From an uncultured Bacilli bacterium (lineage in GTDB: Bacteria; Bacillota_I; Bacilli_A; RF39; UBA660): a DNA stretch of 53,234 bases. Each line of letters opens with the position of its first letter. Position 1 is the stretch's first letter. The position numbers were made by a program, and so were the translations under genes. The notes under the pieces were generated by a model, which was not told the DNA's origin, made no database searches, and saw nothing but the letters and a program-made list of their open reading frames with translations. Where the stretch lies: the NCBI GenBank assembly GCA_947632715.1, contig CANRQF010000001.1, positions 1 to 53,234 on the forward strand, in the 5' to 3' direction. Positions 4,714 through 35,310 of this stretch are shown one piece after another.

Positions 4714-5960
4714 TGGCAAGATTAAAGAAAAAAGTTAAAAAAAATTTAACTATATTTCTAATTATTATTCTTTGTGGTTTTCTTTTATTTAAAGTTGGAA
4801 CATTAATTGGTAATATTACTCCAAGTGATAATAATAGTAATAAAGAAATACTTAATAATAAGAATAATAAACCTAAAGAAGAAGAAGAAAAGATTAAAAC
4901 ATATACTGCTAGTTTAATTGCTACGGGAGATGGACTTATTCATAAACCAATATATCAAACTTATTATGATAGTACCACTAATAGTTATGATTTTTCTAGT
5001 ATACTCTCTTTAACTAAAGATAAGATTAAAGACTATGATATTAGATATTATAATCAAGAGACAATTTTTGATGATAGTAAACCTTATAGTAGTTATCCAG
5101 TTTTTAATACACCAAGTGCTTTTGGGGAAAACATGATTGATGCTGGTTTTAATTTAGTAAGTCTTGCCACTAACCACTCAATGGATGGTGGTGCTACTTC
5201 AGCTAAAACGAGTGCAACATTCTGGCGTAATAAAAAAGATATTTTAGCAACTGGTATGTTTTATGATAATTCTGATCGAGAAACTTATCCAATTATGGAA
5301 AAAAATGGTATTACTTATACAATGTTATCATATACAACAAGTACTAATGGTTTGGGAGCATCTGCCCTTTCTAAAGAACCATTTATTTTAAATACATATA
5401 ATGAAGAAAGAGTAAAAAAAGATATTGAGGCTGTTAGAGATAAAGTTGATGTATTAATTGTTGCAATACACTGGGGTGTTGAATATAATCAAGATGCTAC
5501 AGCAGAACAAAAGAATATTGCTAAATTTTTAGCAGATAATGATGTTGATATCGTCTTAGGTACTCATTCTCATTGTATTGAACCTTGGGAAAGAATTGAT
5601 GATACAGTAGTTTTCTATTCCTTAGGTAACTTTGTTTCAAACCAAATGGCTGCTGAAACACCTAAAATAAGAAAAGTTGGTGTTGTTGGAATGTTTGCTA
5701 CATTAAATATAGTTAAAACAGTAGATAAAGAAAATAATACAACTACAATTGAAATAAAAGATATTGGAGCTGATTTAAACTATTCTTATCGTACTCATAA
5801 TAATACTACAGGTAAAAATGAATATTTAGTAATACCTTTTAGTAAAATGGAGGAAAAATATTTAAAAGATTATCAAAGTGTATATGACGAATTTAGTAAA
5901 GTTTTAACTAAGTATGATGATTCAATTAAAATTGAACCACTACCAACTACTGCAAATTAA
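4713..5960 (+). CDS. CapA/PGA_cap family metallophosphatase-like protein, N-terminally membrane anchored
   Basis: N-terminal TM helix. Motifs LATNHSMDGG, HWGVEYN and GTHSHC are typical of the CapA family. The ATG overlaps the HIT stop by 1 nt. Confidence 0.75.
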   Translation: MARLKKKVKKNLTIFLIIILCGFLLFKVGTLIGNITPSDNNSNKEILNNKNNKPKEEEEKIKTYTASLIATGDGLIHKPIYQTYYDSTTNSYDFSSILSLTKDKIKDYDIRYYNQETIFDDSKPYSSYPVFNTPSAFGENMIDAGFNLVSLATNHSMDGGATSAKTSATFWRNKKDILATGMFYDNSDRETYPIMEKNGITYTMLSYTTSTNGLGASALSKEPFILNTYNEERVKKDIEAVRDKVDVLIVAIHWGVEYNQDATAEQKNIAKFLADNDVDIVLGTHSHCIEPWERIDDTVVFYSLGNFVSNQMAAETPKIRKVGVVGMFATLNIVKTVDKENNTTTIEIKDIGADLNYSYRTHNNTTGKNEYLVIPFSKMEEKYLKDYQSVYDEFSKVLTKYDDSIKIEPLPTTAN

Positions 5961-5986
5961 AATACCTTTATAAGGTATTTTTTTTA
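5958..5986. terminator. bidirectional intrinsic terminator between convergent genes
   Basis: Hairpin AATACCTT-TAT-AAGGTATT (5961-5979), flanked by an A-run and a T-run. Confidence 0.55.
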
Positions 5987-6873
5987 AATAAAACTAGTTT
6001 AGGTATTTGTTTATCTTTAGTTAAATATTCAAAGAAATCAATATCATAATCATCTATTAAACGCATAAAATCTTTTATTATTTTATCACTACTAAAAACT
6101 AAAGCACTACGAATAATAAGCGTTGTTATTTCTAAATCTTTATCATCAAAATACTCTACTTGTTCTTCTAATACTGACCAAGTTACTTCATCATATATTA
6201 CTTTTAATAATTCATTAGTAGTATTATAAAATGCTTTCGTAAAACCAATATCTAAAAATATATCTTCTGGTATTTGAAAATTTCTTTTAATAACTTTTTG
6301 TAATAATTCATCAAAGATAAATAATATATTATATTTAAAATTATTATATTTTTCTTTTAACAATATATTAGGTTCATTATTTATTTTATTATCAGTAATT
6401 TTTATTAATACTTTAATAATATCTTGATATATTACTTTTCTTAAGTCATCAATGTTTTCTATAGAATTAATATCATTTTCAAAATAATCTTCCTCTTCTT
6501 CATCTAATACATCTTCCTCATCTAAAGAATAATAATCTGAATCATAATCATAAACAAAATCATTTTTTTCAATTAAATCATATAATTTATTTAATATTCT
6601 TGCTTTAATAATCTTCTCATAATCATCTTTAACATAATTTAACATATTTTCAACATTATACATTTCATCATCGCTAATAAAATCACTAATATTAACTAAA
6701 CTATAACTAGGTATATTATCATAAATTCTTTTTTCTTTTTCTAATAATTTAGTTAAAGAAATTTCTTTTTTACCATTTTTAATATCTTGTAATTTATTAT
6801 AAATTTCTATTGATACTTGATATAAATTACTAACAATATTATATTCATTTTCTAAAAGTCCATATTTTCCCAT
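5968..6873 (-). CDS. hypothetical acidic cytoplasmic protein, tandem paralogue of 6883..7704
   Basis: Long ORF, no TM segment, D/E/Y-rich central segment. Shares a KYN-x-IxxNFxIxxD block and a C-terminal IPK(I/L) motif with its neighbour. Confidence 0.5.
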   Translation of the reverse strand: MGKYGLLENEYNIVSNLYQVSIEIYNKLQDIKNGKKEISLTKLLEKEKRIYDNIPSYSLVNISDFISDDEMYNVENMLNYVKDDYEKIIKARILNKLYDLIEKNDFVYDYDSDYYSLDEEDVLDEEEEDYFENDINSIENIDDLRKVIYQDIIKVLIKITDNKINNEPNILLKEKYNNFKYNILFIFDELLQKVIKRNFQIPEDIFLDIGFTKAFYNTTNELLKVIYDEVTWSVLEEQVEYFDDKDLEITTLIIRSALVFSSDKIIKDFMRLIDDYDIDFFEYLTKDKQIPKLVLFKKNTL

Positions 6874-12164: not shown

Positions 12165-12563
12165 CTAATTTTTACTATTTTTTACTTCCTCTATCTCTTC
12201 AATTGGTACATTTGTTATTTTATGTATTTCTTCTATTTTCATATAGTTTAGTAAACTTTTTATAATTATTCTAGTTCCTTCTTTAACCCCTTCTTCTTTT
12301 CCAATTAAAATACCTTCTTCTTTTCCTTCTTCTTTACCAATTAAAATGCCTTCTTCTTTTCCTTCTTCTTTACCAATCAAAATTCCTTCCTTTTTACCAA
12401 TGTTTATTCCTCTTCTTTCTCCTTTTTCTCTTGCTATTCTCTCTCTTGCTTCTTGCATTAATTTATTTTCTTCTTCAATACTTATCATTCTCGTTATTGT
12501 TCCATCTTCATTATATCTAAACACTTTTTCTTTCACCTCTTCTATTAGTGATAATGTCAACAT
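12165..12563 (-). pseudogene. truncated duplicate of the 3' part of the Rpn-like gene, with an expanded in-frame repeat
   Basis: 12191-12547 is near-identical to 12658-12966, except for 48 extra nt of the EGILIGKE/EGKE-encoding repeat. It lacks the N-terminal nuclease domain. Confidence 0.6.
12191..12547. repeat. direct repeat copy 1 (357 nt) of the Rpn-like 3' segment
   Basis: Aligned by eye with 12658-12966. Confidence 0.85.
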
Positions 12564-12637: not shown

Positions 12638-13540
12638 TTAATTCTTTTTTATTTCTTCTATCTCTTCAATTGGTACATTTGTTATTTTATGTATTTCTTC
12701 TATTTTCATGTAGTTTAGTAAACTTTTTATAATTATTCTAGTTCCTTCTTTAACCCCTTCTTCTTTTCCAATTAAAATACCTTCTTCTTTACCAATCAAA
12801 ATTCCTTCCTTTTTACCAATGTTTATTCCTCTTCTTTCTCCTTTTTCTCTTGCTATTCTCTCTCTTGCTTCTTGCATTAATTTATTTTCTTCTTCGATAC
12901 TTATCATTCTTGTTATTGTTCCATCTTCATTATATCTAAACACTTTTTCTTTCACCTCCTCTATTATTTCATCATTCTTACTTAATTCTTCTAATTCTTC
13001 TTTATTTGCATCTAAGGCTACTATATATTTATCATTTCTTTTACTTTCCTTTCTTTTCCATTCTTCTTTATATTTTCTTATATTTACTGTAATTACTTTA
13101 AATCTTCTACTAAATAATTTCCCAGTTTTTTTGTATATTATATAACCTATATCTTTTTTGGGTGTATTCTTTCCACCATTATATACTAAATCTATTAATA
13201 TTTTTTCACTTACCATATACTCATTGTTTGTATACAACCCATATATTGTACAATAATAAATTAAATTTCTTTCTCTTATTATTTGATCATAATTACTATT
13301 TACTTCAATATCAATTATTTTATTATCTTTAGTTTTTACTAACAAATCTAATATATTATTTTTCTGATTCTTATATTCTTTTGGTAATTCTGTTCTTATA
13401 AATTCAATTACCTCTATCTTCTTTCCTAATATATTACTTAATATCTTATTTAGAAATCTTGTATCTTTGGGATTACCTACCACTTTTTTAAATACTGCAT
13501 CATACTTCAAATTATAAAATGTTTCCATCTTTGGTGCCAA
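12638..13540 (-). CDS. Rpn/YhgA-like PD-(D/E)XK recombination-promoting nuclease / putative transposase
   Basis: The N-terminus LKYDAVFKKVVGNPKDTRFLNKILSNILG...ILDLLVKTKDNKIIDIEVNS is typical of the PDDEXK_transposase-like family. Confidence 0.6.
   Translation of the reverse strand: MAPKMETFYNLKYDAVFKKVVGNPKDTRFLNKILSNILGKKIEVIEFIRTELPKEYKNQKNNILDLLVKTKDNKIIDIEVNSNYDQIIRERNLIYYCTIYGLYTNNEYMVSEKILIDLVYNGGKNTPKKDIGYIIYKKTGKLFSRRFKVITVNIRKYKEEWKRKESKRNDKYIVALDANKEELEELSKNDEIIEEVKEKVFRYNEDGTITRMISIEEENKLMQEARERIAREKGERRGINIGKKEGILIGKEEGILIGKEEGVKEGTRIIIKSLLNYMKIEEIHKITNVPIEEIEEIKKN
12658..12966. repeat. direct repeat copy 2 (309 nt)
   Basis: Aligned by eye with 12191-12547. Confidence 0.85.
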
Positions 13541-21184: not shown

Positions 21185-21209
21185 AAAAGAGATATTTCAT
21201 ATCCCTTTA
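21185..21209 (-). terminator. intrinsic terminator after Cys-rich protein P1, paralogous to the one at 26857-26885
   Basis: On the minus strand, GGGATAT-GAA-ATATCTC followed by TTTT. Confidence 0.55.
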
Positions 21210-21238: not shown

Positions 21239-22534
21239 CTATTTTACTGACGAAAATGTTTTGTAACATAAAGCCCAACTACCACCTAGACCATCGGCTG
21301 CTCCACCTACTTCTCTAGTATATCCGGCAGCACATGTTCCTGCTACTGGTCCACATTCTTTATCACATGCATCTTGGGAAGTATATGTTTTAGATGTATC
21401 ATTTTGACATGTCCATATTGTAATTGTACCACCGCCTCCGGTACTATTACATTCACAAAGTACTTGTGTTCTACCATTTTGATAACAAACAGGTAAACTT
21501 GACATTGAACCATAACCACAATTATCAAAAACTACTTCTTTTTCTCCTTGTTGTTCCCAACCACCATTTTGACATATCCAATTGGATTTAATACAATAAC
21601 CATCTCCACCACCATAACCGCCACTTGTAGAATGGCAACCACTAGTTTGAGAAACTGATGACTCAATAGTACATGATCCTATTCCAGCGTCATTTTTTAC
21701 ATACCCATAATAAGTTCCTGATAAAGATATAGATGGATTTGAAGGATTTGTATATTTTGAATCATCTTGAGGGGTTATGTTGGTTGTTCCTACATACCAT
21801 TTTTCTGCATCGCTACTTTTATTAAATTTTACTGAAATTGAACCATTTGTATTTACTACTTCAAATGAACATTTTGGTATATTCTTTGTTTCAGGTTTAT
21901 CATATGTTATTGAATCATAATCACTAACTTGGAATTTACTATTTTTAACAAAAGCATAATATGTAAATACTCCTTTTGTATCAGGAATACTAAATGTACT
22001 ATTATCTAATTTTTTATTACTGGATTCTGTTGAAGTTAAATTAGTCCATGTACAACTTGAACTATTATTTGATGTTGTAACACAATATTGAGTAGCATTT
22101 TTCAAAGTCCATTTTAGATGATAGCCAACAACTGGATTTGTAGTTGTTGAACCTTTAAAACTACCTAGATTAAATGTTAAAGATGCTTTCAAAAAATATA
22201 AATTACAATATGTTGATTTATTAGTCTTTACTGATGCTTTTCTTGTACTTTCATTATAAGTTAATACACCAGTTAATTTATTTCCTTTTTTATCTACACA
22301 ATTTGAACTATCTTCATCAAATAAATAACCTTCTGGCCAAAAATTCTTTTCTTCATATAATCTATAGCCATCACCTTCATCAACATAAATAGAAAACATT
22401 TCACTATTAATACTCTCTACTTTTTCATAATTGGTTAATACTTTTCTATTACCATAAGACCTAATTAAAAAAGCAATGGCAAAGCCCTCTAATAATATAA
22501 CTACTACTAACAATACTTTTGCTATTTTTTTCAT
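21239..22534 (-). CDS. cysteine-rich N-terminally anchored modular surface protein (paralogue P1), function unknown
   Basis: N-terminal TM helix. Conserved blocks are shared with 26920..27978 and 27991..29187. The SD lies inside the end of the upstream ATP-grasp gene, with a 7-nt gap. Confidence 0.75.
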   Translation of the reverse strand: MKKIAKVLLVVVILLEGFAIAFLIRSYGNRKVLTNYEKVESINSEMFSIYVDEGDGYRLYEEKNFWPEGYLFDEDSSNCVDKKGNKLTGVLTYNESTRKASVKTNKSTYCNLYFLKASLTFNLGSFKGSTTTNPVVGYHLKWTLKNATQYCVTTSNNSSSCTWTNLTSTESSNKKLDNSTFSIPDTKGVFTYYAFVKNSKFQVSDYDSITYDKPETKNIPKCSFEVVNTNGSISVKFNKSSDAEKWYVGTTNITPQDDSKYTNPSNPSISLSGTYYGYVKNDAGIGSCTIESSVSQTSGCHSTSGGYGGGDGYCIKSNWICQNGGWEQQGEKEVVFDNCGYGSMSSLPVCYQNGRTQVLCECNSTGGGGTITIWTCQNDTSKTYTSQDACDKECGPVAGTCAAGYTREVGGAADGLGGSWALCYKTFSSVK

Positions 22535-22541
22535 TTTTCAC

Positions 22542-23747
22542 TCACTTCCAATAACTATTTTTATATTCTATATAATAATGTAACCATCTTTTTCTAAGCA
22601 TCAAATATCTTAGAAAATTACGATCACATTTTGCATCCATTGGTTTAATTACTTTTTCCCATAATTTGAATACTTCTTTTTTATAAGCTTCATTATTTAT
22701 ATATTTTTTTATTATACCTTTTGGAACAAAAGATAATAATACTTTTTCATTTAAATATCTAAATTCATGTTCTTCATGATTGATTAAATCATCCACTAAA
22801 GTTTTAACTAAATTTTTACCCAATGCTGTAATGTAGTAACTACATCTACCTTGTCTTGCATTAATTTCTAATACTTTAAAAGTATTATCTTTCTTATCAT
22901 ATTTCATATCAACTTCAGCAAAACCACGATAATTGATACTCTCTAAGAAATTTTTAATGGTATCTACTTGTTTTTGAACATCACCATTTGTTAAATTTAA
23001 GCCATTAATTAAGACAGCCGCATTACCAACCATTGTTGTTGTTCTTTCTTGTAGTCCAATTTGAGCAAAACTCATAAATTCAGCTTTACCTTTACTATTT
23101 ACATAGCAAACAGCATCAAATAAACAATCATCATCTCCTTCAATAAATTCTTGGATGATTAACTTATCATTATATCCACTACTATATATTATATCAATTT
23201 TTTCTTGTAATGTGTTAAAATTTTTAATTTTATATATTTTATTTTTGCCTGCAAATTCTAAATGGTTGTAATCTACCACATTTGCGGGCTTTAAAACGAT
23301 GGGGTAAGAAATTTCTTTTAAATCTACTTTACACTTTTTGTCATAATAAATTGTCTTTGGAAACTTTAAATTACTCTTTTCATACGTTTTATAAAATATT
23401 TCTTTATTAGTTAAACTTTTTAAAACTTTTAAATCTGGTAAATTAAATAAATAATTTTTAGCAAGTTCTTCTTTATTTTTACTAATAAATTCACTATAAG
23501 TTTCATTGGTACTAATAAGTAATATTTTTTCTTTTTTATCTTTAGCAAAATCTCTAAGTAATTTTAAAAATCCTTCTTCACTCCACATATCTTGATTGTA
23601 AGATACTTCTAAAATATTAGTATATTTAGTAAATGATAAAACTTTTGTACCAATAACATATGGCTTTATTTTATATTCTTCATAACAACATCTAGCCATA
23701 TAGTAAGCATTCGCATCAGTTCCTAAAATGAGTACTGGATTCTTCAT
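22542..23747 (-). CDS. ATP-grasp carboxylate-amine ligase, D-aspartate ligase (Aslfm)-like
   Basis: Motifs VLILGTDANAYYMARCCYEEY, LKPANVVDY, FAEVDMKYD..FKVLEINARQGRCSYY and a C-terminal RKRWLHYYIEY resemble the D-Asp ligase family as I remember it. Not checked by search. Confidence 0.65.
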   Translation of the reverse strand: MKNPVLILGTDANAYYMARCCYEEYKIKPYVIGTKVLSFTKYTNILEVSYNQDMWSEEGFLKLLRDFAKDKKEKILLISTNETYSEFISKNKEELAKNYLFNLPDLKVLKSLTNKEIFYKTYEKSNLKFPKTIYYDKKCKVDLKEISYPIVLKPANVVDYNHLEFAGKNKIYKIKNFNTLQEKIDIIYSSGYNDKLIIQEFIEGDDDCLFDAVCYVNSKGKAEFMSFAQIGLQERTTTMVGNAAVLINGLNLTNGDVQKQVDTIKNFLESINYRGFAEVDMKYDKKDNTFKVLEINARQGRCSYYITALGKNLVKTLVDDLINHEEHEFRYLNEKVLLSFVPKGIIKKYINNEAYKKEVFKLWEKVIKPMDAKCDRNFLRYLMLRKRWLHYYIEYKNSYWK

Positions 23748-23757
23748 ATTCTCTCCT

Positions 23758-24939
23758 TTAATATTTTATTTCACTTTTTTCATTATTTTCAATATGAACT
23801 CTTACAACCCGATTAGATATAGAACTATATAAATGATAAGCATTAGTACCTAAATTTTTACATACTTCTTCTTGCGATATAACACTGCCAAATATTTCTA
23901 CTTCATCATTTATTTTAACTGTATTATCTACTTCAACCATGATCATATCCATACAATCATTTAATATTTTATATTTCTTTTTATTAATGGAAACATTACC
24001 AAATTCTTTTGTAACTCCATCAGCATAACCAATAGGTATTGTTGCTACTAACATATCTTCTAAAGCTTTATATTTGGCATCATAACCCACTATTTCATCC
24101 TTTTTTACTTCTCTTATACTAATTACCTTAGAATATAGGGAAAATGCTGGTTTAACCTTTAAATCGTTCTCTAAATAAGTATTACTAATATTATATTTCT
24201 TTAAATAACTTTCTCTTTTCTTACATCTTAAATAATCTTGAAAACTAGTTGAATATTTTATAATTGAATTATAACCATACATTAAGATACCTAGTCTTAT
24301 TCCTGTTGTATACTTACATTTATCATGACGTATTAGAGTTAGGCTTCTTGCAAAGTGAATGATTGGAATACTACTTAAATCTAAATCACTTATTAATTCA
24401 TCTATTTTGTTAATTGCTTCATCATAATAAGGATCCATAAACCCAGAGGTTGCAAAATGGGTAAATAAACCTTCTAAAACCATATTATCTTTTTCTTGGA
24501 TTAATTTATATGTTTCATTAATATCTTCTTTATTTTGGAATCCTAATCGATTCATACCTGAATTAATTATCATATGTATTTTTAATTCTTTTTTATATTT
24601 TTTAGTTACTAATTCTTTTACGTAATCTAAATTCTCTACTGATATTGTAATATCATTTTTACAAGCAACTTCTACATCTTCTAAGTCAATTGGTTCTAAT
24701 ATAAGTATGGGAATATCTAAATAATATTTTCTTATTTCTAATGCTTCATCTAATGAAGATACTGCTAAATAATTTATACCTCCCTTTATTAAAGATGGTA
24801 TTATATGTATTCCATGATTATAAGCATTATTTTTAACTACCCCAATATAATATTTATAATCATTATACTTTTCTTTTATATTCTTAACATTTTGTTCTAA
24901 TATATCATTATTTATTAATGCATATGTTTTTCTATACAT
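23758..24939 (-). CDS. alr: alanine racemase-fold (fold-type III PLP) amino-acid racemase
   Basis: PLP-lysine motif VVKNNAYNHG. Also IPIGYADG and MDMIMVEV. Confidence 0.8.
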   Translation of the reverse strand: MYRKTYALINNDILEQNVKNIKEKYNDYKYYIGVVKNNAYNHGIHIIPSLIKGGINYLAVSSLDEALEIRKYYLDIPILILEPIDLEDVEVACKNDITISVENLDYVKELVTKKYKKELKIHMIINSGMNRLGFQNKEDINETYKLIQEKDNMVLEGLFTHFATSGFMDPYYDEAINKIDELISDLDLSSIPIIHFARSLTLIRHDKCKYTTGIRLGILMYGYNSIIKYSTSFQDYLRCKKRESYLKKYNISNTYLENDLKVKPAFSLYSKVISIREVKKDEIVGYDAKYKALEDMLVATIPIGYADGVTKEFGNVSINKKKYKILNDCMDMIMVEVDNTVKINDEVEIFGSVISQEEVCKNLGTNAYHLYSSISNRVVRVHIENNEKSEIKY

Positions 24940-24951
24940 AACTTGTCTCCT

Positions 24952-26778
24952 TTATACACTTTCATTTACAAAAAATATCTCATACCATTTCAAAAATGAA
25001 TATATAGCCCATACTTTTTTATATAGATATTTTTTAGTACTAGTACAACTATCAAGAAGTTTCACTATTTTTTTAGTATTAAAGAATTTATTTGCATAAT
25101 CACTTGTAAATACATTCTTTACTTCATCATAGAATGGACTTTCACATATCCAATTTCTAAGAGGTACCGGAAATCCTAACTTCTTTTTATTATATGCTTC
25201 CGTTGGTATAACTTCTTTTGCGGCTTCTCTCATCGCTAATTTCGTTTTATTTTTAGCTATCTTTTGTTCCATTTTTAAAGTTTTAGCTACTTCAAACACT
25301 TCTCTATCAACAAATGGTACTCTTACCTCTAAAGAGTTAGCCATACTCATGCAATCACCTTTATGAAGGATATCTGCTACTAACCAAAAATTAATATCAA
25401 TGGCTTGCATTTTATTTAAATTATTTTCATCTTCATTTTTATTAAATATCTCTTTAGTAATTTCTTTATTTTTTATTTTACCTTTACTAACTAATATTTT
25501 ATCTCTTTCTCTTTCACTAAATATCTTACTTATACCAACATAATCATCTTCTAATTTATATCCTCTTCTTACTAAGAAATTTCTACCTCTAAATTCAGGT
25601 GTTAATTCAAGTAATTTAGCAATACTATGTCTTATAAAATAAGGAATTTTATTATACCAAGATAAATCAACATTTTCTAAATAAGTATTATATCCCCCAA
25701 AGAACTCATCAGCACCTTCACCAGATAAGCACACTTTAACATCCCTACTAGCAATTAATGATAAGAAATACAATGATATTGCTGATGGATCACTAAATGG
25801 TTCATCCATATGATAAATAAGTTTTGGAACAACTTCTAAGTATTCCTCTTTACTAATTATTTTACTTTTATTTTCTATTCCCAATTTATTAGATAAATCT
25901 TCAGCATAACTAATTTCACTATATTCTAAATTATTATATCCTACAGTATAAGTCTTATTAGGTTTAGCAAGAGATACAATATATGAAGAATCTACTCCAC
26001 TTGATAGAAATGAACCAACTTCAACATCACTTATTTGATGATGAGTTACTGAATCTTCCATAACTTTAGCTATTTTACTAACTACTTCTTCTAAACTGTT
26101 ATCTTTTACTTCAAATTTTACATCATAATATTTTTGAATATTTATTTCATTATCTTTATATATTAAATAAGATCCAGCAGGTAATTTATATACTCCTTTA
26201 AAGAAAGTTTCATCTAAAGGATTAAAACTAAATGACAAATATAAAGGTAGAGCATCTGTATTTAATTCTTTTTCAAAATCAGGTTGTTCTAAGAATGCTT
26301 TAATTTCACTTGCAAACATAAAAGTATCATTAAATTTACCATAATAAAAAGGTTTAATACCAAAATGGTCTCTAGCGCAAAATAAAGTTTTATTTTTTTT
26401 ATCCCAAATAGCAAAAGCAAACATTCCTCTTAACTTAGAGGGAAGGCTACTTCCCCATTCTTCATATCCATGAACTAAAACTTCTGTATCCGTTGTGGTT
26501 GTAAATTTATGTTTATGTTTTTTTAATTCTTTAGTTAATTCTTCATAATTATATATTTCACCATTAAATATAACAATTACATCACTAGTTTCATTATATA
26601 TTGGTTGATGTCCTTTACTTAAATCAATTATAGAAAGACGACGATGACCTAAGGCTACATCATCATCAGTATAATAGCCATCATCATCCGGACCACGATG
26701 TTTAATTCGATCAGCCATCTTTTTAATTATTTTATCTTTTTTCTTTTCTTTATTTACAAATCCAACTATTCCACACAT
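24952..26778 (-). CDS. asnB: asparagine synthetase B-type glutamine amidotransferase
   Basis: MCGIVGF N-terminal nucleophile. PP-loop-like FLSSGVDSS. 608 aa. Confidence 0.88.
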   Translation of the reverse strand: MCGIVGFVNKEKKKDKIIKKMADRIKHRGPDDDGYYTDDDVALGHRRLSIIDLSKGHQPIYNETSDVIVIFNGEIYNYEELTKELKKHKHKFTTTTDTEVLVHGYEEWGSSLPSKLRGMFAFAIWDKKNKTLFCARDHFGIKPFYYGKFNDTFMFASEIKAFLEQPDFEKELNTDALPLYLSFSFNPLDETFFKGVYKLPAGSYLIYKDNEINIQKYYDVKFEVKDNSLEEVVSKIAKVMEDSVTHHQISDVEVGSFLSSGVDSSYIVSLAKPNKTYTVGYNNLEYSEISYAEDLSNKLGIENKSKIISKEEYLEVVPKLIYHMDEPFSDPSAISLYFLSLIASRDVKVCLSGEGADEFFGGYNTYLENVDLSWYNKIPYFIRHSIAKLLELTPEFRGRNFLVRRGYKLEDDYVGISKIFSERERDKILVSKGKIKNKEITKEIFNKNEDENNLNKMQAIDINFWLVADILHKGDCMSMANSLEVRVPFVDREVFEVAKTLKMEQKIAKNKTKLAMREAAKEVIPTEAYNKKKLGFPVPLRNWICESPFYDEVKNVFTSDYANKFFNTKKIVKLLDSCTSTKKYLYKKVWAIYSFLKWYEIFFVNESV

Positions 26779-26814: not shown

Positions 26815-26843
26815 ATTTTAAATAATTAGTTAAATTAAGTCAA
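26815..26843 (-). promoter_or_regulatory. candidate sigma-A promoter of the asnB-alr-ATP-grasp-P1 operon
   Basis: On the minus strand, TTGACT-N17-TAAAAT, about 35 nt upstream of the asnB-like ATG. Confidence 0.4.
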
Positions 26844-26856
26844 TATTTTACTATTT

Positions 26857-26885
26857 AAAAAGAGATATTTTTCATATCCCTTTTA
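26857..26885 (-). terminator. intrinsic terminator after Cys-rich protein P2
   Basis: On the minus strand, GGGATAT-GAAAA-ATATCTC followed by TTTTT. Homologous to 21185-21209. Confidence 0.55.
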
Positions 26886-26919: not shown

Positions 26920-27978
26920 CTACTGAACTACTGATGAAAATGTTTTATAACATAATGCCTGACTATTAGCTTGTCCATCTGTTCCAACAACCAATCTAGT
27001 GTATCCTACATCACATGTTCCTGCTACTGGTTTACATACTGCATCACATGCTGATTGAGATGAATATGGTGTTCTTGTATCATATTGACAAGTCCATACT
27101 GTTGAACCAGCACTTGGTCCACCGGAAGATGAACAACTACATGTTTCATAATCGGTTCTTTGACTAGTACCTCCAGCGGTATTACAACTTCCTGAACAGT
27201 TAGAAGTAGTTGAATGCCCCGAACAACTATATACTTGTGAACTACTAGTTATTGTTGCACTCATAGTTCCATTAACACAACTACAATATCCTTCATATAA
27301 AGTACAAGTAGAACCAGAATCTCCACCGCTACTACTTCCACCGGCAGTTGCAGAATGACATCCGCTTGTTTGAGAAATTTTTGTTTCTATAGTACATGAT
27401 GCTATTCCCACACTATTTTTTACATACCCATATAATGTAGAAAAACTAAATGTAGTTGTTTCTGTATTATTATATTGTGAATCAATTTGAGGAGTTATTC
27501 CACTTGTCCCTACATACCATTTTTTTGCATTATCACTTTTATTAAATGTTATTGAAATTGAACCATTTGTATTTGATACGCTAAATGAACATGTTGGTAG
27601 TGTTTCTGTTATTGGTAAATCAAAATATAAATAACAATAAGTTGTTTGTTTTGTATTTGTTACATATGCTTTATTTTCACTTTTTTCAAATGTTAATACT
27701 CCACTTACTATTTCTCCTTTTTCATTTATGCATGATGATTTACTTTGATTAAAATTATATCCTGATGGCCATGTTGTTGAACTGGAATATTCTTGGTATT
27801 CTCCACTACCTTCTTTAGTTTCTACCATTATCGCAAATGAACCATCTTTCTTTATTTCTTTTAATTCTACATTATCAAGTACTATTTCTTTATTTGTACT
27901 TGATTTATACATGAAGTATGTTGCTACTATCTCTATTACTATTAACATTATTATTAATATACTCTTATTCTTTTTCAT
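26920..27978 (-). CDS. cysteine-rich N-terminally anchored modular surface protein (paralogue P2), function unknown
   Basis: N-terminal TM helix. Shared blocks WPSGYNF..C..YCYLYF, PTCSFSVSNTNGSISITFNKSDNAKKWYVGT, GYVKNSVGIASC and WTCQYD...LCYKTFSSV. Confidence 0.75.
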   Translation of the reverse strand: MKKNKSILIIMLIVIEIVATYFMYKSSTNKEIVLDNVELKEIKKDGSFAIMVETKEGSGEYQEYSSSTTWPSGYNFNQSKSSCINEKGEIVSGVLTFEKSENKAYVTNTKQTTYCYLYFDLPITETLPTCSFSVSNTNGSISITFNKSDNAKKWYVGTSGITPQIDSQYNNTETTTFSFSTLYGYVKNSVGIASCTIETKISQTSGCHSATAGGSSSGGDSGSTCTLYEGYCSCVNGTMSATITSSSQVYSCSGHSTTSNCSGSCNTAGGTSQRTDYETCSCSSSGGPSAGSTVWTCQYDTRTPYSSQSACDAVCKPVAGTCDVGYTRLVVGTDGQANSQALCYKTFSSVVQ

Positions 27979-27990
27979 AAATTAATCCCC

Positions 27991-29187
27991 TTAACTCATT
28001 TTATAACAATATAATGGGTAACCACCTGGATTAGATGCTGTATATCCATCTTTACAACTACTTGCTTTACAATTGTTAGTACAGTCATCTTGAGAACTAT
28101 ATTCTTTTTGGTCTAGTGAACATTGATATGTTGCTCCGCTTCCTCCCCCACATGTACATCCATATATAGCTTGAGCACCAACACTATAATCTTGGCAACC
28201 ACCATATATTGTTTCTTTTGGACATGATGAACCAGATCCTAAACTATGTACTTCAACGTATTTATCACCTTGTTTAGTACATGTTGAAATATTCCAACTA
28301 CAATTAGCTGCGCTACCTTGCGAAACTTGTGAACATCCTGGAGCCTCTGCATACATATCTGCTTTACATTTTCCAATTCCTGAACTATTCTTTACATATC
28401 CATATAATGTACTTGGTGGAAATGTTAATGTTGTTGGATTATCATAATTTGAATCTACATTTTGATCTGCTATATCTTTAGTTCCTACATACCACCTATC
28501 TGCATTATCACTTTTTGTAAATGTTACTCCTCCTCTGCTATCTGCAGTAAATGTACATGTTGGTGCTGAATTTATTATTGTTATTATATCGCTTGCACTT
28601 GCCATTATTCCTGATGCATTTCTTACATAAAAATAATATGTTTGTTGACCTGTTGTTGTAAAAGTATAACTACTTGAATAACTTGTTACACTTGATGATA
28701 AACTTTGCCAACTGCATCCGCTTGGATTTGATGATTGTGTGATACAATATTGGGTTGCATTTGGTAAGGTCCATGATGCATTCCATGTTGTTCCTGACAA
28801 TGGAGCTGTTTCACTTGCAAAACTAAATGTTGCTGTATAATTTGCTTTATCCATATATAATGTACAATATACTGTTCTTGTACTTGTTACTGTTACACTT
28901 CCATTATTCATGGAAAATGATGGTGTTACTTTTTCTCCAAATTGATCTTCACATTTTGTCATACTTGTGTTGATTTGATATGTTCCTGTTGGAAATGTAT
29001 TTCCAGATTGTTCAGCATAACTTCCATTATCTTGTTGCACATAAAAAGTTAAATAATTATTATGTTTTTCTTTTTTCTTTATTTCTTCTACTTCTGTACC
29101 CATATATGTTTTATATGTTTTTATACCTATAAAACAACATATCAAAAGCAAAATGAGTACAAACATCCTTTTTTGTACTTTTTTCAT
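27991..29187 (-). CDS. cysteine-rich N-terminally anchored modular surface protein (paralogue P3), function unknown
   Basis: N-terminal TM helix. Same block order as P1, including the extra NATQYC(V/I)T module. More divergent C-terminal Cys-rich domain ending LYCYKMS. Confidence 0.75.
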   Translation of the reverse strand: MKKVQKRMFVLILLLICCFIGIKTYKTYMGTEVEEIKKKEKHNNYLTFYVQQDNGSYAEQSGNTFPTGTYQINTSMTKCEDQFGEKVTPSFSMNNGSVTVTSTRTVYCTLYMDKANYTATFSFASETAPLSGTTWNASWTLPNATQYCITQSSNPSGCSWQSLSSSVTSYSSSYTFTTTGQQTYYFYVRNASGIMASASDIITIINSAPTCTFTADSRGGVTFTKSDNADRWYVGTKDIADQNVDSNYDNPTTLTFPPSTLYGYVKNSSGIGKCKADMYAEAPGCSQVSQGSAANCSWNISTCTKQGDKYVEVHSLGSGSSCPKETIYGGCQDYSVGAQAIYGCTCGGGSGATYQCSLDQKEYSSQDDCTNNCKASSCKDGYTASNPGGYPLYCYKMS

Positions 29188-30287: not shown

Positions 30288-32252
30288 TTAATTATTTTTA
30301 AAAACTTTTTGATAATAATTATTATCAATAATTAATTTACTAATATTTACTTTACTATTAACAATATGATTAACATTTTTAACATAATCATCAGGGATTA
30401 TTTCACCCTCTACTGGAATAAATTTATTACTTTTAGCATAATACATACCTTTATCACTAACCCAGCTATTATCAGCAAAAATAGCAAGTCCACCTTCTGT
30501 ACTTAGAATATCTTTACCAATAAATAATCTTGAATCATAATTAATCCCAAAAGCATTATAAATAGTTGGAATAACATCTAATTGACTACCTACTTTCGTA
30601 ACATTAACTGTATCCATTTCACTATTCCAAAGAATAAAACTACTCTTATTTCTTGTAATTATTTCTTCTCTTTCAAATGTACTAGCTTCATTAATTTCAT
30701 CTAAATCTAAGACATATGGATTATGATCACCCACTAAGGCTATAACAGTATCCTCGAGTTTACCTGCTTCATCTAGTTTTTGAATTAATAAAGAAAGGGC
30801 TTGATCAAGTTCCATTTGACTAGCCAAATAACCTGATATTCTTTCACTTAATCCTAAATTAAATTGTAAAAATTCTTCTTTATGTTTTCTTGCTTGATAA
30901 TTTTCACTCCAACTATAACCAGAATGACCAGATACAGTTGCATAAAAGACCATAAAATGATCATCATTAATATAATCATCTACTGTCGTATCAATCATTT
31001 CAACATCACTTCTTGGCCATACTTTACAATTAACTCTTTTTTCTAGTCCATTACCACAGCCTAAGAAATTATCAAAACCCATACTCTTTAAATATTTATT
31101 ACGATCTTGAAAAGTATAAGTATTATTATGATAAGCATAAGTATTATAATTTATTTCTTTAAATTTATTAGCAATACCTTGAGGAAAAGAAATATTTCCA
31201 CTTCTAAACTTAGATAAAATATTAGTGGATGTAGCATATAAACCACTTAATTCTTGAAATTCACCACCAATAGTACTATAAATAGTTGGTGTATAAAAAT
31301 TCTTAAAAGAAAAGCCACTGTTAACAAGCTTATATAAAGTTGGTGTTATATCTTCTCTAACTGCTATTTCATTAAAACTTTCAGCCATAAATAATATTAA
31401 ATTTTTATCTTTAAAGATACCTGTATAATCATTTTGTAATGTTCCTGTATCATTAGCCATATATTCATGAATTTGTTTAATTGAACTATTTTTTTCATTT
31501 TCTTTTAAAAATTCAAAATCTATATCTAAATTATTATAATCATATACTTTTACACTAGGTTCATCATCTTGTTCATTTGGATCATTTAAAGGATTATCAT
31601 TTACTATTTTATCTTGAAAACCAATTACTTCTCTTTTTAAATCAATAATCATGGCATGAATTAAACCAAAATAATCAATATTTAAAGATACATTATTAAT
31701 ATCATAATATAAATAATATGGAGAATTAATTTCTTCTTTATTAATATTTAAACTTAAAATAAATAATAAAAATACTAGTAATGATAAGCAAAAATAACCA
31801 AGATTCTTTTTCCAATTATTATGTTCAAAATCAATATGTTTATGAAATATACCAGATAAAATTAAAGGTAACAAAATTAAGATTATTCCAAGTATTCTTT
31901 TTAAAATTTCTATTAAACCAGTAAGGGCAAAATCTCCAACTTGATCAGCTATTTTTAAAGCTGAAAGTGAAACATAAAAGCCAAAATAACCATCAACTAC
32001 ATATTCTACTCCAAACCATATTGTAATTGATAACAGAATAAAATAAAAAATTATTTTATTTATTTTTTCTTTTTTAAATATTGTTGATATAACCCACAAT
32101 AATAAACTAAAAAATGTTAAAAAGATTAAGATATTTATTAATGATATATTAAATATATCATTGTGAACTAATACCTTAAATAATAATTCTAAATAAATAA
32201 AACTAACTAAATAAATAAAAAATATTTTAATTTTTTTCATACTTATCATCAT
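30288..32252 (-). CDS. LTA synthase family protein (polytopic N-terminus plus extracellular sulfatase-fold domain)
   Basis: About five N-terminal TM helices, then a sulfatase-like domain (NLILFMAESF, GDHNP). Confidence 0.75.
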   Translation of the reverse strand: MMISMKKIKIFFIYLVSFIYLELLFKVLVHNDIFNISLINILIFLTFFSLLLWVISTIFKKEKINKIIFYFILLSITIWFGVEYVVDGYFGFYVSLSALKIADQVGDFALTGLIEILKRILGIILILLPLILSGIFHKHIDFEHNNWKKNLGYFCLSLLVFLLFILSLNINKEEINSPYYLYYDINNVSLNIDYFGLIHAMIIDLKREVIGFQDKIVNDNPLNDPNEQDDEPSVKVYDYNNLDIDFEFLKENEKNSSIKQIHEYMANDTGTLQNDYTGIFKDKNLILFMAESFNEIAVREDITPTLYKLVNSGFSFKNFYTPTIYSTIGGEFQELSGLYATSTNILSKFRSGNISFPQGIANKFKEINYNTYAYHNNTYTFQDRNKYLKSMGFDNFLGCGNGLEKRVNCKVWPRSDVEMIDTTVDDYINDDHFMVFYATVSGHSGYSWSENYQARKHKEEFLQFNLGLSERISGYLASQMELDQALSLLIQKLDEAGKLEDTVIALVGDHNPYVLDLDEINEASTFEREEIITRNKSSFILWNSEMDTVNVTKVGSQLDVIPTIYNAFGINYDSRLFIGKDILSTEGGLAIFADNSWVSDKGMYYAKSNKFIPVEGEIIPDDYVKNVNHIVNSKVNISKLIIDNNYYQKVFKNN

Positions 32253-32446: not shown

Positions 32447-33313
32447 CTAATTATTATGTTTTATAGTACCATTTTTTAACAAATTAGATTCATCTTTTTG
32501 GGTATTTAAAGCCATACCTATTGTAAATACTAAAGATAAATAATAAATCCAAATCATTAAAACAACAATACTAGCAAGACCTCCATATAGAACACTATAA
32601 TTAGCATAATTAGTGACATATATTGAATATACTTTCGTTCCAATTATAAAGCATATAGTAGTAAATATAGCACCATAATTTAAAACTCGATGACGATTCT
32701 TTTTATCTGGTGCAATTGAATATATTAATCTTATAATTAAGAAAATAAACACCCAAGTAATTGGTCCTTTTAATAAATTAAATATTAGAGTTATTTTATT
32801 AGTTACCATTGGATTTAAATTAACTTCTTTAATAAGAGTAACAATTATATTTCCAAAGACAGGGACAATTAACATAAACAATAATAAAATAACAAAAAGA
32901 AAAGATAAACCCATTGCTCTTATTCTTCTTTTTAACCAACTTTTATTGGGATTACCATATAAAGTATTACTAGCAATAATTATGGCATCTGCACCATTAC
33001 TAGCTATATATAAACCAGCAATAACAGTTATAAAGAAATGAAGACCAGCTCCTATACCTAAGTTAGAACCTAAAACTAAATTAGCTATATCTTTGGAAAA
33101 AGAATTAGCAATAAAATTATAAAGAAAATCAACTGACAAATTAAGAACGGAAGCCCCATAAGAAATTAGACCAAATGTTGGAATTATGGCAAGACAAAGA
33201 AAAAAAGAAATATTACCTGGTAAAATAACCATTTCACTTCTTCTTAATACTTTAAAAAAGTTTTCAAAAAAGTCTTTGATTGTCAATTTAGCTTTTTTAA
33301 TTCTTTTTTTCAT
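32447..33313 (-). CDS. YihY/BrkB family inner membrane protein
   Basis: Polytopic membrane protein with the typical N-terminus (FFKVLRRSEMVILPGNISFFLCLAIIP). Confidence 0.75.
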   Translation of the reverse strand: MKKRIKKAKLTIKDFFENFFKVLRRSEMVILPGNISFFLCLAIIPTFGLISYGASVLNLSVDFLYNFIANSFSKDIANLVLGSNLGIGAGLHFFITVIAGLYIASNGADAIIIASNTLYGNPNKSWLKRRIRAMGLSFLFVILLLFMLIVPVFGNIIVTLIKEVNLNPMVTNKITLIFNLLKGPITWVFIFLIIRLIYSIAPDKKNRHRVLNYGAIFTTICFIIGTKVYSIYVTNYANYSVLYGGLASIVVLMIWIYYLSLVFTIGMALNTQKDESNLLKNGTIKHNN

Positions 33314-35310
33314 TTGTTTCCTTTTTTCACTTTCATATCATCAATGGCTTCCGTTAAAGCATCTTCAATAGTTTTTAAATTACTTTCAATTATACTATAA
33401 CCAAATTCTGCTCCATAATTATAAGGAAGTCTTTTTAATTCTTTATTTAATTTATGTATATAATTAATTATTTGTTTTTGAGTATATCCAACTGTATAAA
33501 TAACAAATTCATTACCATCACTACGCATTAAATCACTATTATCAAGTTGGGTTTTAATTAAAGCATTAGCAAATGCTTGAATTTGTTTATCTCCTTCACT
33601 AACACCATACTTTTCATTTATTTCTGTTAATTTATTTAAATCAACAACAATTATTGCTTGAGGATATACAGTATTATTACTCCAAGATTTCATAAAATCA
33701 CTTAAATATGTTCTATTCTTAAGACAAGTTAGTTCATCAATAAATCTAATTTTTTCATCTTTCTTTAATTTTCTAGCAATTCTTATCTTTTTAGTATTTT
33801 TATAAACAATAAAGCCAATAAATAATATAGCTATTATTACTAAAATAACATATTTAATAATTGTATTTAAAATATTACCATTTTCAACTACTTCTAAATG
33901 ACTATTAAGTCCTTTATTAATCATACTAAATGTATCTAAATAATTAATATATTTATCTAATAATAAATGTAATATTTCATAATCGCTTCTAACTTTAAAA
34001 GTATATGTTGAATTAATATATGTTTCATATTTACTAGTATAATTATTTAACTTTTTATTATTTAAATATTTAAAATTATATGTATCAAGAATAATTATTA
34101 CATCTTCTTTATTTAATTTATATAATTCTTTATTATCTTTATAAGTATTGATAATGATTCCACCTTCAATACCCATTAAATAATTGTAGATATTACTTCC
34201 TTCTTCAACATATACTTCTTCACCTTTTAAACTATATAAAGAATTAAATACTTTATCATTATCAGTTCTTGTAATAATTGATATATTGGCAAGTATACCA
34301 TTAGAAGTATTCACATAATTATCTTCAATATTTTTATTAAAATCAAAATATAAATCTACTTTATTTTTATTTATTTGTTTAATTAATTTATTTAAATTAC
34401 GATATTTAGATATATTAAAATATACACCAGAAAATTCACTAAATTCACGTAAATATTCAGCAACTATACCTCCATATTTTCCACTCATAATTACTTCATA
34501 TGGTGAATTATTGATAAATCCATATTCATAATCAACACTACGTAAACGATCTATATCAGAATCTGTTATTTTAAGAGATTCTGTAAATAAATTAAATTCT
34601 TCTTCTTTTAAGTATTTACTACTAGATACATTCCAAGAATTAAAATATTTATATAATATGCTACTTAAAGTATCATCTATTCCACTTAAAGTATAATAAC
34701 ATTCTATATCACTTAAATGATAAACTATCTCTAAGTTATTTGCTAATATTTGATCGATATTTCTAATTCTAGGAACTAAAATAAAATTAGTTGTATCATT
34801 TAAAGAATTATATAATTCTTCATTTGTTTCATAAGTAGTAAAGTTTATATTAATATCTTTTAAATAATTTTTAACATATTCTTCATTAGTTTTTAAAATA
34901 CCTATATTAGTATTTTCTAAATCACTATTTTGTTTAATGAAACTTTTTTCTTTACCTACTAAAATATAGTGATCTGTATAAAATATTTTAGAAGTATCAT
35001 TAACATCTTCTTCATAACTTAATTTTATAAGATTATCTTCACTATTTGTAGTTACATAATTAAAATTAATACCATACTCTTCTGTAACATCATTTAAAAA
35101 ATCATAAAAAACACCATGACCATCTTTACTAAATAAATTTTCATCTGGTGCTATATAAATATTATTAATATTATTGATATTGGTATTTATCCAAGTTCTT
35201 TCTGAACTAGTTAATTTTGTATCATCATTTAAAAATTTATATGTAATAATAGCTCCCAATAAAAGAACTATTATTCCTATGGCAATAAATAGCCATTTTT
35301 TCTTTTTCAT
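33310..35310 (-). CDS. membrane sensor with extracellular solute-binding-like domains and a degenerate GGDEF domain
   Basis: N-terminal TM, large extracytoplasmic region, second TM, then a GGDEF-type domain (DELTCLKNR, VVDLNKLTEINEKYG). The signature reads DGNEF. Confidence 0.7.
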   Translation of the reverse strand: MKKKKWLFIAIGIIVLLLGAIITYKFLNDDTKLTSSERTWINTNINNINNIYIAPDENLFSKDGHGVFYDFLNDVTEEYGINFNYVTTNSEDNLIKLSYEEDVNDTSKIFYTDHYILVGKEKSFIKQNSDLENTNIGILKTNEEYVKNYLKDININFTTYETNEELYNSLNDTTNFILVPRIRNIDQILANNLEIVYHLSDIECYYTLSGIDDTLSSILYKYFNSWNVSSSKYLKEEEFNLFTESLKITDSDIDRLRSVDYEYGFINNSPYEVIMSGKYGGIVAEYLREFSEFSGVYFNISKYRNLNKLIKQINKNKVDLYFDFNKNIEDNYVNTSNGILANISIITRTDNDKVFNSLYSLKGEEVYVEEGSNIYNYLMGIEGGIIINTYKDNKELYKLNKEDVIIILDTYNFKYLNNKKLNNYTSKYETYINSTYTFKVRSDYEILHLLLDKYINYLDTFSMINKGLNSHLEVVENGNILNTIIKYVILVIIAILFIGFIVYKNTKKIRIARKLKKDEKIRFIDELTCLKNRTYLSDFMKSWSNNTVYPQAIIVVDLNKLTEINEKYGVSEGDKQIQAFANALIKTQLDNSDLMRSDGNEFVIYTVGYTQKQIINYIHKLNKELKRLPYNYGAEFGYSIIESNLKTIEDALTEAIDDMKVKKGNK

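Follow-up and report, generated by a model that had tools for sequence, protein, structure and literature searches.

Can a bacterium build a D-amino-acid branch on its peptidoglycan with a racemase that is unrelated to the one used in the known pathway? This question is raised by an operon in a 53,234-nucleotide stretch of DNA from an uncultured Bacilli bacterium (GTDB lineage Bacillota_I; Bacilli_A; RF39; UBA660; GenBank assembly GCA_947632715.1, contig CANRQF010000001.1, positions 1 to 53,234), the whole of which is referred to here as the window. Three of its minus-strand genes, encoding an AsnB-type glutamine amidotransferase of 608 amino acids (aa), an alr-like fold-type III pyridoxal phosphate (PLP) racemase of 393 aa and an ATP-grasp carboxylate-amine ligase of 401 aa, were proposed in an earlier note, made from the sequence alone, to form one pathway for a non-canonical D-amino-acid branch or cross-bridge. 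A check of the open reading frames (ORFs) returned the three genes with the lengths, motifs and 10–12 nt gaps given in that note, and domain searches agreed with the three enzyme assignments, in the case of the ATP-grasp protein only weakly (25.8 bits).

We propose that the alr-like gene and the ATP-grasp gene together make up the central part of a module for peptidoglycan side chains (branches or cross-bridges) which follows the logic of the RacD/Asl/AsnH system with a non-homologous racemase, and we give this reading a probability of about 0.62. The window DNA is chromosomal, has a GC content of 24% and encodes EzrA, PyrG, LtaS, a PASTA kinase and its partner phosphatase, along with further housekeeping proteins of walled Firmicutes; the presence of the PASTA kinase, EzrA and LtaS indicates that the organism has a cell wall.

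Conservation of the racemase-ligase pair

When each species was represented by a single genome, scanning returned 80 loci with ligases 43–81% identical to the window ligase (22542–23747, minus strand), all of them metagenome-assembled and labelled as Bacilli, 'Tenericutes', Clostridia, Lachnospiraceae, Acutalibacteraceae or Saccharibacteria. An alr-like gene was present in 76/80 of these loci and lay directly upstream of the ligase gene in 75/80 with a median gap of 10 nt, which indicates that the close packing of the two genes in the window is not due to chance. A further 28 metagenome contigs carried a window-like ligase with an alr-like gene upstream (0 with RacD), and the conservation of gene order on which the earlier proposal depended was therefore borne out for the racemase and the ligase. 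An asnB-like gene was present in 63/80 loci and lay directly downstream of the ligase gene in 58/80, with a median gap of 4 nt. The divergences of ligase and racemase were correlated (Mantel r = 0.85, p = 0.001), and correlations were also found when the pairwise divergences of all three proteins (ligase, racemase and AsnB) were compared (Mantel r = 0.85 and 0.90).

Homologues of RacD, the Asp/Glu-family racemase of the known system, were absent from the window, from all 80 genome loci and from the surroundings of the window-like ligases on metagenome contigs (0/44). On another 28 metagenome contigs the gene for an Asl-like ligase (41–46% identical to Asl of L. crispatus) had racD downstream of it, and alr was absent from all 28. 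In neighbour-joining trees all Alr-linked ligases formed one clade, apart from the lactobacillal Asl group and the RacD fusions, and the window ligase grouped exclusively with the lactobacillal Asl set in 0/100 bootstraps. Two features of D-aspartate ligases (EC 6.3.1.12), placement inside the RacD-linked clade and genomic pairing with racD, are thus absent from the window ligase, and its suggested membership of the D-Asp-ligase clade did not survive a test which the earlier note had itself set.

The RacD-type contigs were high in GC (51–61% in the four checked) and approximately 17 of them, all from the human gut, read asnB-asl-racD-asnB. A complete cluster for all three chemistries therefore already exists for the classical system, and the arrangement is not as unprecedented as had been supposed; an asnB-asl pair is also found in L. 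crispatus. Judged by gene order, the Alr-type module is an architectural twin of the RacD-type cluster with a swapped racemase. Among the human-gut contigs of the RacD type (in our numbering of loci L111, L114, L120, L127–L128, L130–L133, L135, L138–L140, L142, L145–L146, L152, L154, L156–L157, L160, L162, L165 and L173) the approximately 17 clusters hold two distinct AsnB paralogues, and the others read asl-racD-asnB, some being ended by the contig edge.

A sister group of ligases (P0127–P0137; L125, L129, L134, L150, L153 and L169) and the ligases of L102–L105 had no adjacent racemase gene. At L102–L105, L125, L129 and L153 a ligase of the same family was paired with a divergent Mur-ligase-like gene (approximately 506 aa, 25% identical to MurE), which may represent another type of branch-building pair.

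A putative dedicated paralogue of alanine racemase

The window racemase (23758–24939, minus strand) carries the motifs VVKNNAYNHG and IPIGYADG, has both alanine racemase domains (Ala_racemase_N and C) and scored 254.6 bits on TIGR00492 against a cut-off of 168, in a match which was split in two by an insertion; the N and C domains are separated by approximately 30 additional aa. It scored 176 bits on VanT-G, below the cut-off of 460, and is therefore not a VanT enzyme. Residues were compared in 73 cassette racemases, aligned and numbered with Alr of G. stearothermophilus, the motifs of which agree with the PDB alignment. K39, Y43, R136, R219 and Y265 were invariant and H166, M312 and Y354 nearly so. 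The window enzyme keeps all eight, and with them the fold-type III PLP architecture, the K39/Y265 pair and the PLP ligands R136, H166, R219 and Y354 of an alanine racemase.

The substrate entryway, which we take to comprise D171, R290, R309 and I352, was altered throughout the cassette clade: D171 was replaced by Gly in 72/73 racemases, together with a one-residue deletion, R309 by Asp or Glu in 53/73, I352 by Asn, Ser or Thr in 73/73 and R290 by Lys in 42/73. Elsewhere N203 was changed to Arg or Lys (70/73), G135 to Asn or His (70/73), Q314 to Met (66/73) and G86-A87 to Glu-Pro. The window racemase has G171 with the deletion, K290, D309 and N352, as well as N203R, G135N, Q314M and G86E/A87P, and additionally K129I and D131N. 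The changes at positions 309, 313 and 290 differed from one racemase subclade to another and did not clearly follow the presence of the diaminobutyrate transaminase described below.

Six Acutalibacteraceae/Ruminococcaceae-type loci carried a second alr 3.5 kb downstream of the cassette, which kept all of the canonical residues and scored 396 bits on TIGR00492 in one stretch, vs 266 for the cassette copy. Given this canonical second copy, the cassette racemase is not the housekeeping enzyme in those six genomes. By its residues, the cassette racemase appears to be a specialised, dedicated paralogue with an intact catalytic set and a rebuilt substrate entryway; its assignment to a different superfamily from RacD was confirmed, and the suggestion that its substrate may be other than D-Asp is a reasonable one. 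N203R at first looked like a binder of the substrate carboxylate, but the residue equivalent to N203 in the ornithine racemase OrnR binds the PLP phosphate and not the substrate (PMC13397332).

The ATP-grasp ligase

In searches of domain libraries the ligase gave a weak match to ATP-grasp_3 (PF02655), with the score noted above. An AlphaFold2 model was a confident ATP-grasp fold (pLDDT 90.8) and alignments found the family-invariant K153, Q199/E200, D280, E294, N296 and R298 all to be present; the ligase has the ATP-grasp fold and the nucleotide- and Mg-binding residues of D-aspartate ligases. The nearest solved folds identified by Foldseek were L-amino-acid ligases, biotin carboxylase, PurK, PylC and Ddl/VanA, with template modelling (TM) scores of 0.5–0.6; the L-amino-acid ligases BL00235 and RizA and PylC matched with E values of approximately 1e−13 to 1e−14, TM scores of 0.52–0.59 and ≤ 17% identity. 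On the basis of the model it would be classed by fold as a generic carboxylate-amine ATP-grasp ligase. Searching the PDB with the single ligase sequence gave no meaningful match and a ligase profile matched carbamoyl-phosphate synthetase alone (E 2.7e−9), which leaves the substrate pocket without a structural template.

A tblastn search of plasmid-labelled records returned full-length homologues from L. crispatus, L. curvatus and L. fermentum (30–34% identity over 79–98% of the query, E 1e−46 to 1e−50), the genes of which are chromosomal and are named at source as carboxylate-amine ligase or D-aspartate ligase. The L. curvatus gene is located after aspS and an Asp/Glu-family racemase gene (racD) and the L. 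crispatus gene after asnB. We took these to be presumptive D-Asp ligase orthologues, matching the published aslA-racD operon and AsnH step, and it was these lactobacillal proteins that formed our D-Asp ligase reference. The likeness to D-Asp ligases which had been noticed in motifs thus extends over the full length of the protein.

The wider ligase family numbered 2622 representatives at E < 1e−3 and included ligase-RacD fusions and DegT-aminotransferase-ligase fusions, so membership of this family does not by itself fix the substrate. Several close homologues carry the Joint Genome Institute (JGI) name 'D-aspartate ligase'. Residues 378–397 of the window ligase form a conserved basic and aromatic C-terminal helix (consensus KRxLYLxKRxxxYYKKYKNxxW); if this helix binds the membrane it could suit action on lipid-linked precursors.

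The AsnB-type amidotransferase

The AsnB-type protein (24952–26778, minus strand) carries the motifs MCGIVGF and FLSSGVDSS, contains GATase_6/7 and Asn_synthase domains, scored 512 bits on TIGR01536 and has both the N-terminal-nucleophile glutaminase Cys2 and the PP-loop (SSGVDSS) of peptidoglycan-amidating AsnBs. It is 43% identical to the product of the asnB gene beside asl in L. crispatus. The AsnBs fell into three groups: clade D, whose members usually lie downstream of the pair in the Alr-type module; a group from the RacD modules, which falls near the L. crispatus protein; and clade U, to which the window AsnB belongs. The window protein is thus not an orthologue of the pair-linked clade D, and the view of the three genes as one module holds for the alr-ligase pair and not for the window asnB, which is not the module's usual amidotransferase.

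Clade-U copies lay directly upstream of the pair in L012, L019, L023, L095, L098 and L124. The clade-D asnB was missing from the window and from its closest relatives (L012, L013 and L098), and relatives at approximately 66–69% ligase identity carried both copies in the order asnB(U)-alr-ligase-asnB(D). These arrangements are most simply explained if the pair, already accompanied by an asnB of its own, became located downstream of a resident asnB, and if the module copy was lost afterwards in the window lineage. The window clade-U AsnB may be a housekeeping or independently acting enzyme.

In two related uncultured Bacilli (L096 and L097) the clade-U asnB ends a GGDEF-BrkB-LtaS-AsnB array, following the GGDEF, BrkB/YihY and LtaS genes with overlapping start and stop codons. 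The window keeps the GGDEF-BrkB-LtaS array on its minus strand (33310–35310, 32447–33313 and 30288–32252), and between ltaS and asnB it has genes for a bPH protein, a histidine phosphatase and two Cys-rich paralogues. This linkage to ltaS hints at a lipoteichoic acid- or envelope-connected role for clade-U AsnB.

Gene neighbourhoods in related genomes

The murE genes beside the module in relatives scored above the TIGR01085 cut-off, and in the directly downstream copies the DNPR motif was replaced by EDAR, EDPR or NDDL. Adjacency of asnB and murE was found in several module loci. A diaminobutyrate-2-oxoglutarate transaminase gene (619 and 614 bits, above the EctB cut-off) was found either in the interval from asnB to murE or immediately behind the ligase gene, and this gene together with a murE without DNPR directly followed the module in Lachnospiraceae-type loci and on several metagenome contigs. 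At L068–L070, L083, L093, L107, L121 and L171 the transaminase gene was directly upstream of a non-DNPR murE, with no ectoine genes, which suggests that the walls of some uncultured Lachnospiraceae-like bacteria contain 2,4-diaminobutyrate.

A gene for a SpoVB/MurJ-like flippase was found by the module in 15 loci, and further neighbours encoded MraY, MurB, M23 peptidases, FtsEX, CtpA, a FemX-like protein and SpoIID/MreB. Taken as a whole, these surroundings speak for a role of the module in peptidoglycan. In L077 a FemX-like (FemAB family) gene at 5234–6439 is inserted between the alr-like gene and the ligase gene, which suggests that tRNA-dependent and ATP-grasp branch-building enzymes may be combined in one locus. 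Canonical Ddl homologues adjoin the cassette in L091 and L168, which shows that the pair does not replace Ddl; as a general explanation, an Alr with a non-canonical D-Ala-D-Ala ligase was rejected because of these Ddl homologues and the canonical alr of six loci.

Comparison with known systems

AslA is an ATP-grasp enzyme which uses β-aspartyl phosphate, racD lies in the aslA operon and AsnH amidates the D-Asp after ligation (PMC4155827). With this system, RacD/Aslfm (AslA)/AsnH of E. faecium, L. lactis and lactobacilli, which builds the D-Asp (D-iso-Asn) cross-bridge, the module shares its sequence of racemase, ATP-grasp ligase and AsnB-type amidotransferase, the full-length homology of the ligases and the clustering of the genes, which extends from the racD-aslA operon to the asnB-asl pair of L. 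crispatus and the four-gene clusters of the gut contigs. However, the window racemase is a fold-type III PLP enzyme and not a member of the Asp/Glu-racemase family, its gene lies upstream of the ligase gene whereas racD lies downstream, the ligase belongs to a separate clade which is never paired with RacD and the AsnB comes from a different paralogue clade.

AsnB1 of L. plantarum and LtsA of Corynebacterium, which amidate meso-diaminopimelic acid (mDAP), are likewise AsnB-family glutamine amidotransferases acting on a peptidoglycan carboxylate, as is predicted here, and asnB1 co-localises with murE (PMC4155827). Those systems need neither a ligase nor a racemase, however, and the DNPR motif, a typical feature of mDAP-adding enzymes, is missing from the murE genes adjacent to the module. 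The VanT serine racemases of VanC/E/G/L/N-type vancomycin resistance are also Alr-fold paralogues which, beside a housekeeping Alr, feed a non-standard D-amino acid to a partner ATP-grasp ligase for peptidoglycan precursors, but the window racemase keeps Y354 and has no membrane domain, and its partner is Asl-like rather than Ddl-like. The L-amino-acid ligases BL00235 and RizA and PylC join amino acids by the same ATP-grasp acyl-phosphate chemistry; they differ from the window ligase in sequence, as given above, and in biological role. Walls of the B2 type with D-Orn or D-2,4-diaminobutyrate (D-Dab) bridges occur in Eubacterium limosum and Clavibacter, and such bridges also need a D-diamino-acid racemase and an ATP-dependent ligase; the diaminobutyrate transaminase and murE of some carriers would link them to the module, though purely by inference. 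No paper describing this combination of genes turned up in literature searches, which also covered bridge-forming ATP-grasp ligases.

Proposed mechanism and alternative explanations

In the mechanism that we favour, a cytoplasmic Alr-fold PLP racemase with a rebuilt substrate channel would convert an L-amino acid into its D-form, and the Asl-related ligase would activate a carboxylate as an acyl-phosphate and join the D-amino acid to UDP-MurNAc-peptide or lipid II, most likely at the side-chain amine of residue 3. The carboxylate left free would then be the target of an AsnB-type glutamine amidotransferase; in most carriers this enzyme would be the clade-D AsnB, and in the window the clade-U AsnB may or may not have a role. 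Our best guess is a D-amino acid with a carboxylate that stays free once the residue has been ligated, either D-Asp-like or a D-diamino acid in a B-type arrangement. We infer every substrate, and the order of the reactions, from the gene anatomy, homologies, pairing, clade separation, racemase residues and neighbourhoods found above.

It should be noted that several findings weigh against this mechanism. Approximately one fifth of the carriers have no adjacent asnB and clade U also occurs away from the pair (in L096 and L097 directly after ltaS, with no pair nearby), so amidation is not obligatory and may not occur in the window. The strict clade of Alr-linked ligases had a bootstrap value of only 63/100, vs 90/100 when a sister group of unknown context was included, and the strict partition of ligases and racemases could stem from vertical inheritance and not from specificity. 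The DegT sugar-aminotransferase fusions of the wider family imply that some relatives act beyond peptidoglycan, and L036, which has a DNPR-type (mDAP) MurE and mraY nearby and no asnB, is ill-suited to a branch on a Lys or Orn side chain. In a search for a cultured carrier, the 120 best homologues found with the window ligase and with a Lachnospiraceae member, and all 80 loci, proved to be metagenome-derived; as no carrier is cultured, there is no known wall chemotype to match. A D-Asp-like residue is further weakened in that Alr-fold racemases are not known to accept acidic amino acids.

One particular version of the favoured reading is that the ligase is a true D-aspartate ligase, served by an Alr-fold replacement for aspartate racemase and producing an L-Lys/Orn-D-Asp (D-iso-Asn) cross-bridge. 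The full-length homology to Asl and the JGI names of close homologues agree with this, and the occurrence of an AsnB gene with both RacD-type and Alr-type modules suggests that a carboxylate is free after ligation. The change of N203 to Arg or Lys brings a positive charge to the PLP site, but its equivalent in OrnR does not contact the substrate, the change of R309 to Asp or Glu is unfavourable for an acidic substrate, and the ligase lies outside the RacD-linked clade with no window-like ligase paired with RacD. As no Alr-fold aspartate racemase is known either, we regard this version as unlikely, although it deserves real weight. That the pair installs a D-amino acid other than D-Asp (e.g. 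D-2,4-diaminobutyrate, D-ornithine, D-asparagine or D-serine), in a wall chemotype not yet linked to genes, is a tentative proposal to which we give somewhat less than an even chance. A B2-type or related bridge would join the amino group of a D-diamino acid (D-2,4-diaminobutyrate, D-Orn or D-Lys) to a stem-peptide carboxylate, e.g. the alpha-carboxyl of D-Glu, with AsnB amidating the free alpha-carboxyl of the bridging residue. We know of no gene assigned to the formation of B2-type bridges, which counts in favour of such a role. Alr-fold racemases for Lys, Arg and Orn exist (PMC13397332; PDB matches 4dza and 4dyj), the entryway gains acidic residues (R309D/E and G86E) and the diaminobutyrate transaminase and non-DNPR murE follow the module in the loci described above. 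This arrangement would, however, reverse the carboxylate-donor and amine-donor roles relative to Asl, most carriers including the window are without a diaminobutyrate transaminase nearby and amidation of B-type bridges is not established. Lysine racemases are reported to have Thr at 222 and Trp at 354, whereas the window enzyme keeps I222 and Y354, and on balance we think a bridge of this type improbable.

We have equally low expectations of a neutral D-amino acid (D-Ala, D-Ser or D-Asn) joined via its alpha-carboxyl to the residue-3 side-chain amine, with AsnB supplying L-Asn or amidating another site, e.g. mDAP or D-Glu. The racemase scores above the alanine racemase cut-off and keeps Y354, which favours small substrates, and broad-spectrum Alr-fold racemases accept Ser, Asn and Gln; PylC, a structural neighbour of the ligase, joins a D-amino acid alpha-carboxyl to Lys N-epsilon, and the asnB-murE adjacency of module loci has its counterpart in the asnB1-murE co-localisation of L. 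plantarum. However, the canonical second alr already supplies D-Ala in six carriers, VanT-type serine racemases replace the Y354 which is retained here, and the presence of AsnB in both module types is unexplained if no carboxylate is left free. Overall, homology and the shared AsnB speak for a D-Asp-like residue, for which the Alr fold would have to take an acidic substrate without precedent; the fold, the acidic entryway and the link to diaminobutyrate transaminase speak for a D-diamino acid, for which the substrate roles of the ligase would have to be reversed; and a neutral residue (D-Ser, D-Ala or D-Asn) is a further possibility. More doubtful again is an action outside peptidoglycan, either in making a free D-amino-acid dipeptide or amide or in decorating teichoic acid, capsule, glycan or a surface protein such as a Cys-rich one. 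The DegT fusions, the nearest solved folds, which are L-amino-acid ligases making free dipeptides, and the position of the window pair among surface-protein genes near ltaS would suit this, but conservation of the pair does not extend to the flanking Cys-rich genes, the pair is not accompanied by transporter or tailoring genes of the metabolite-cluster type and its recurrent neighbours in relatives are murE, mraY, murB, the flippase gene, the femX-like gene and M23 peptidase genes. A coincidental clustering of ordinary genomic copies of alr and asnB next to an ATP-grasp gene seems to us very improbable. Both genes do pass the curated alanine racemase and asparagine synthase cut-offs, and the window asnB clade is found away from the pair as well; against this stand the adjacency of the pair across Bacilli, Clostridia and Saccharibacteria labels, the distinctive signature of the racemase clade and its coexistence with a canonical alr, and the correlated ligase and racemase divergences. 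For alr, coincidence is already largely refuted.

Operon boundaries and other features of the window

The ligase gene is followed after 7 nt by a gene (21239–22534, minus strand) whose 431-aa product is Cys-rich and has an N-terminal membrane anchor; this gene is predicted to be co-transcribed with the three upstream genes, and the asnB-alr and alr-ligase gaps are 12 and 10 nt. A terminator-like hairpin ends this four-gene unit (21186–21208, minus strand; z = −2.9, 3/200 shuffles fold as well), and a closely similar one, in which a U-run follows an 11-bp stem, lies upstream of the promoter (26858–26884, minus strand; −11.2 kcal/mol, z = −3.9, 0/200 shuffles fold as well), where it closes the gene of an upstream Cys-rich paralogue and sets the operon apart from that gene. 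The promoter-like TTGACT-N17-TAAAAT is present at 26843–26815 on the minus strand, 36 nt 5' of the asnB start codon and with 10/12 consensus matches; matches of this type are not above chance in DNA of 24% GC (51 found vs 66.9 ± 8.3 expected from shuffles) and it is the position of this one which makes it plausible. The four-gene transcription unit is better supported by the two flanking hairpins than by the promoter match.

The 431-aa protein is one of three Cys-rich paralogues in the window, the others being encoded at 26920–27978 and 27991–29187 on the minus strand (48% and 35% identity to it). All three have an N-terminal membrane anchor, 12 invariant Cys and a common C-terminal CYK motif, and none matched a family in Pfam or NCBIfam. 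Their genes bracket the racemase-ligase operon, with the near-identical hairpins after two of them. No Cys-rich gene lay beside the pair in L012–L098, including the closest relatives, or in any other locus examined. The operon does end in a Cys-rich gene, as the earlier note had said, and this gene appears from its distribution to be a lineage-specific passenger outside the conserved module. As a substrate or partner of the module, the Cys-rich protein was ruled out by its absence from the closest relatives.

Elsewhere on the minus strand a PD-(D/E)XK transposase-family gene (12638–13540, 300 aa) is followed by a 132-aa ORF (12165–12563) which is a near-verbatim repeat of the C-terminal part of the transposase, including its GKEEG(I/K)LI repeats, and the two look like a partial tandem duplication. 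Adjacent minus-strand genes at 203–1102 and 1102–3483 encode surface proteins: one of 299 aa, membrane-anchored and with a Cadherin-like beta-sandwich domain, and one of 793 aa with no Pfam match and with paired C-terminal D-x-D/S-G-D-G-x-I repeats which are dockerin-like by eye.

Implications

Cross-bridge chemistry determines the cross-linking of the wall, the action of lysins, lysozyme and antibiotics, and the muropeptides which are seen by host immunity. The carriers of the pair are uncultured gut and rumen bacteria, and the labels given to its products by annotation pipelines ('alanine racemase' for the racemase, 'hypothetical' or 'D-aspartate ligase' for the ligase) are probably misleading. 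If the pair does install a new branch, it would provide a genetic marker for wall type across at least 100 species, and would represent a new specificity class within the alanine racemase fold together with a member of the ligase family with a new substrate. Should the D-amino acid be other than D-Asp, the pair could possibly supply the long-missing bridge-forming enzymes of B-type walls, in uncultured Bacilli and Clostridia of the gut.

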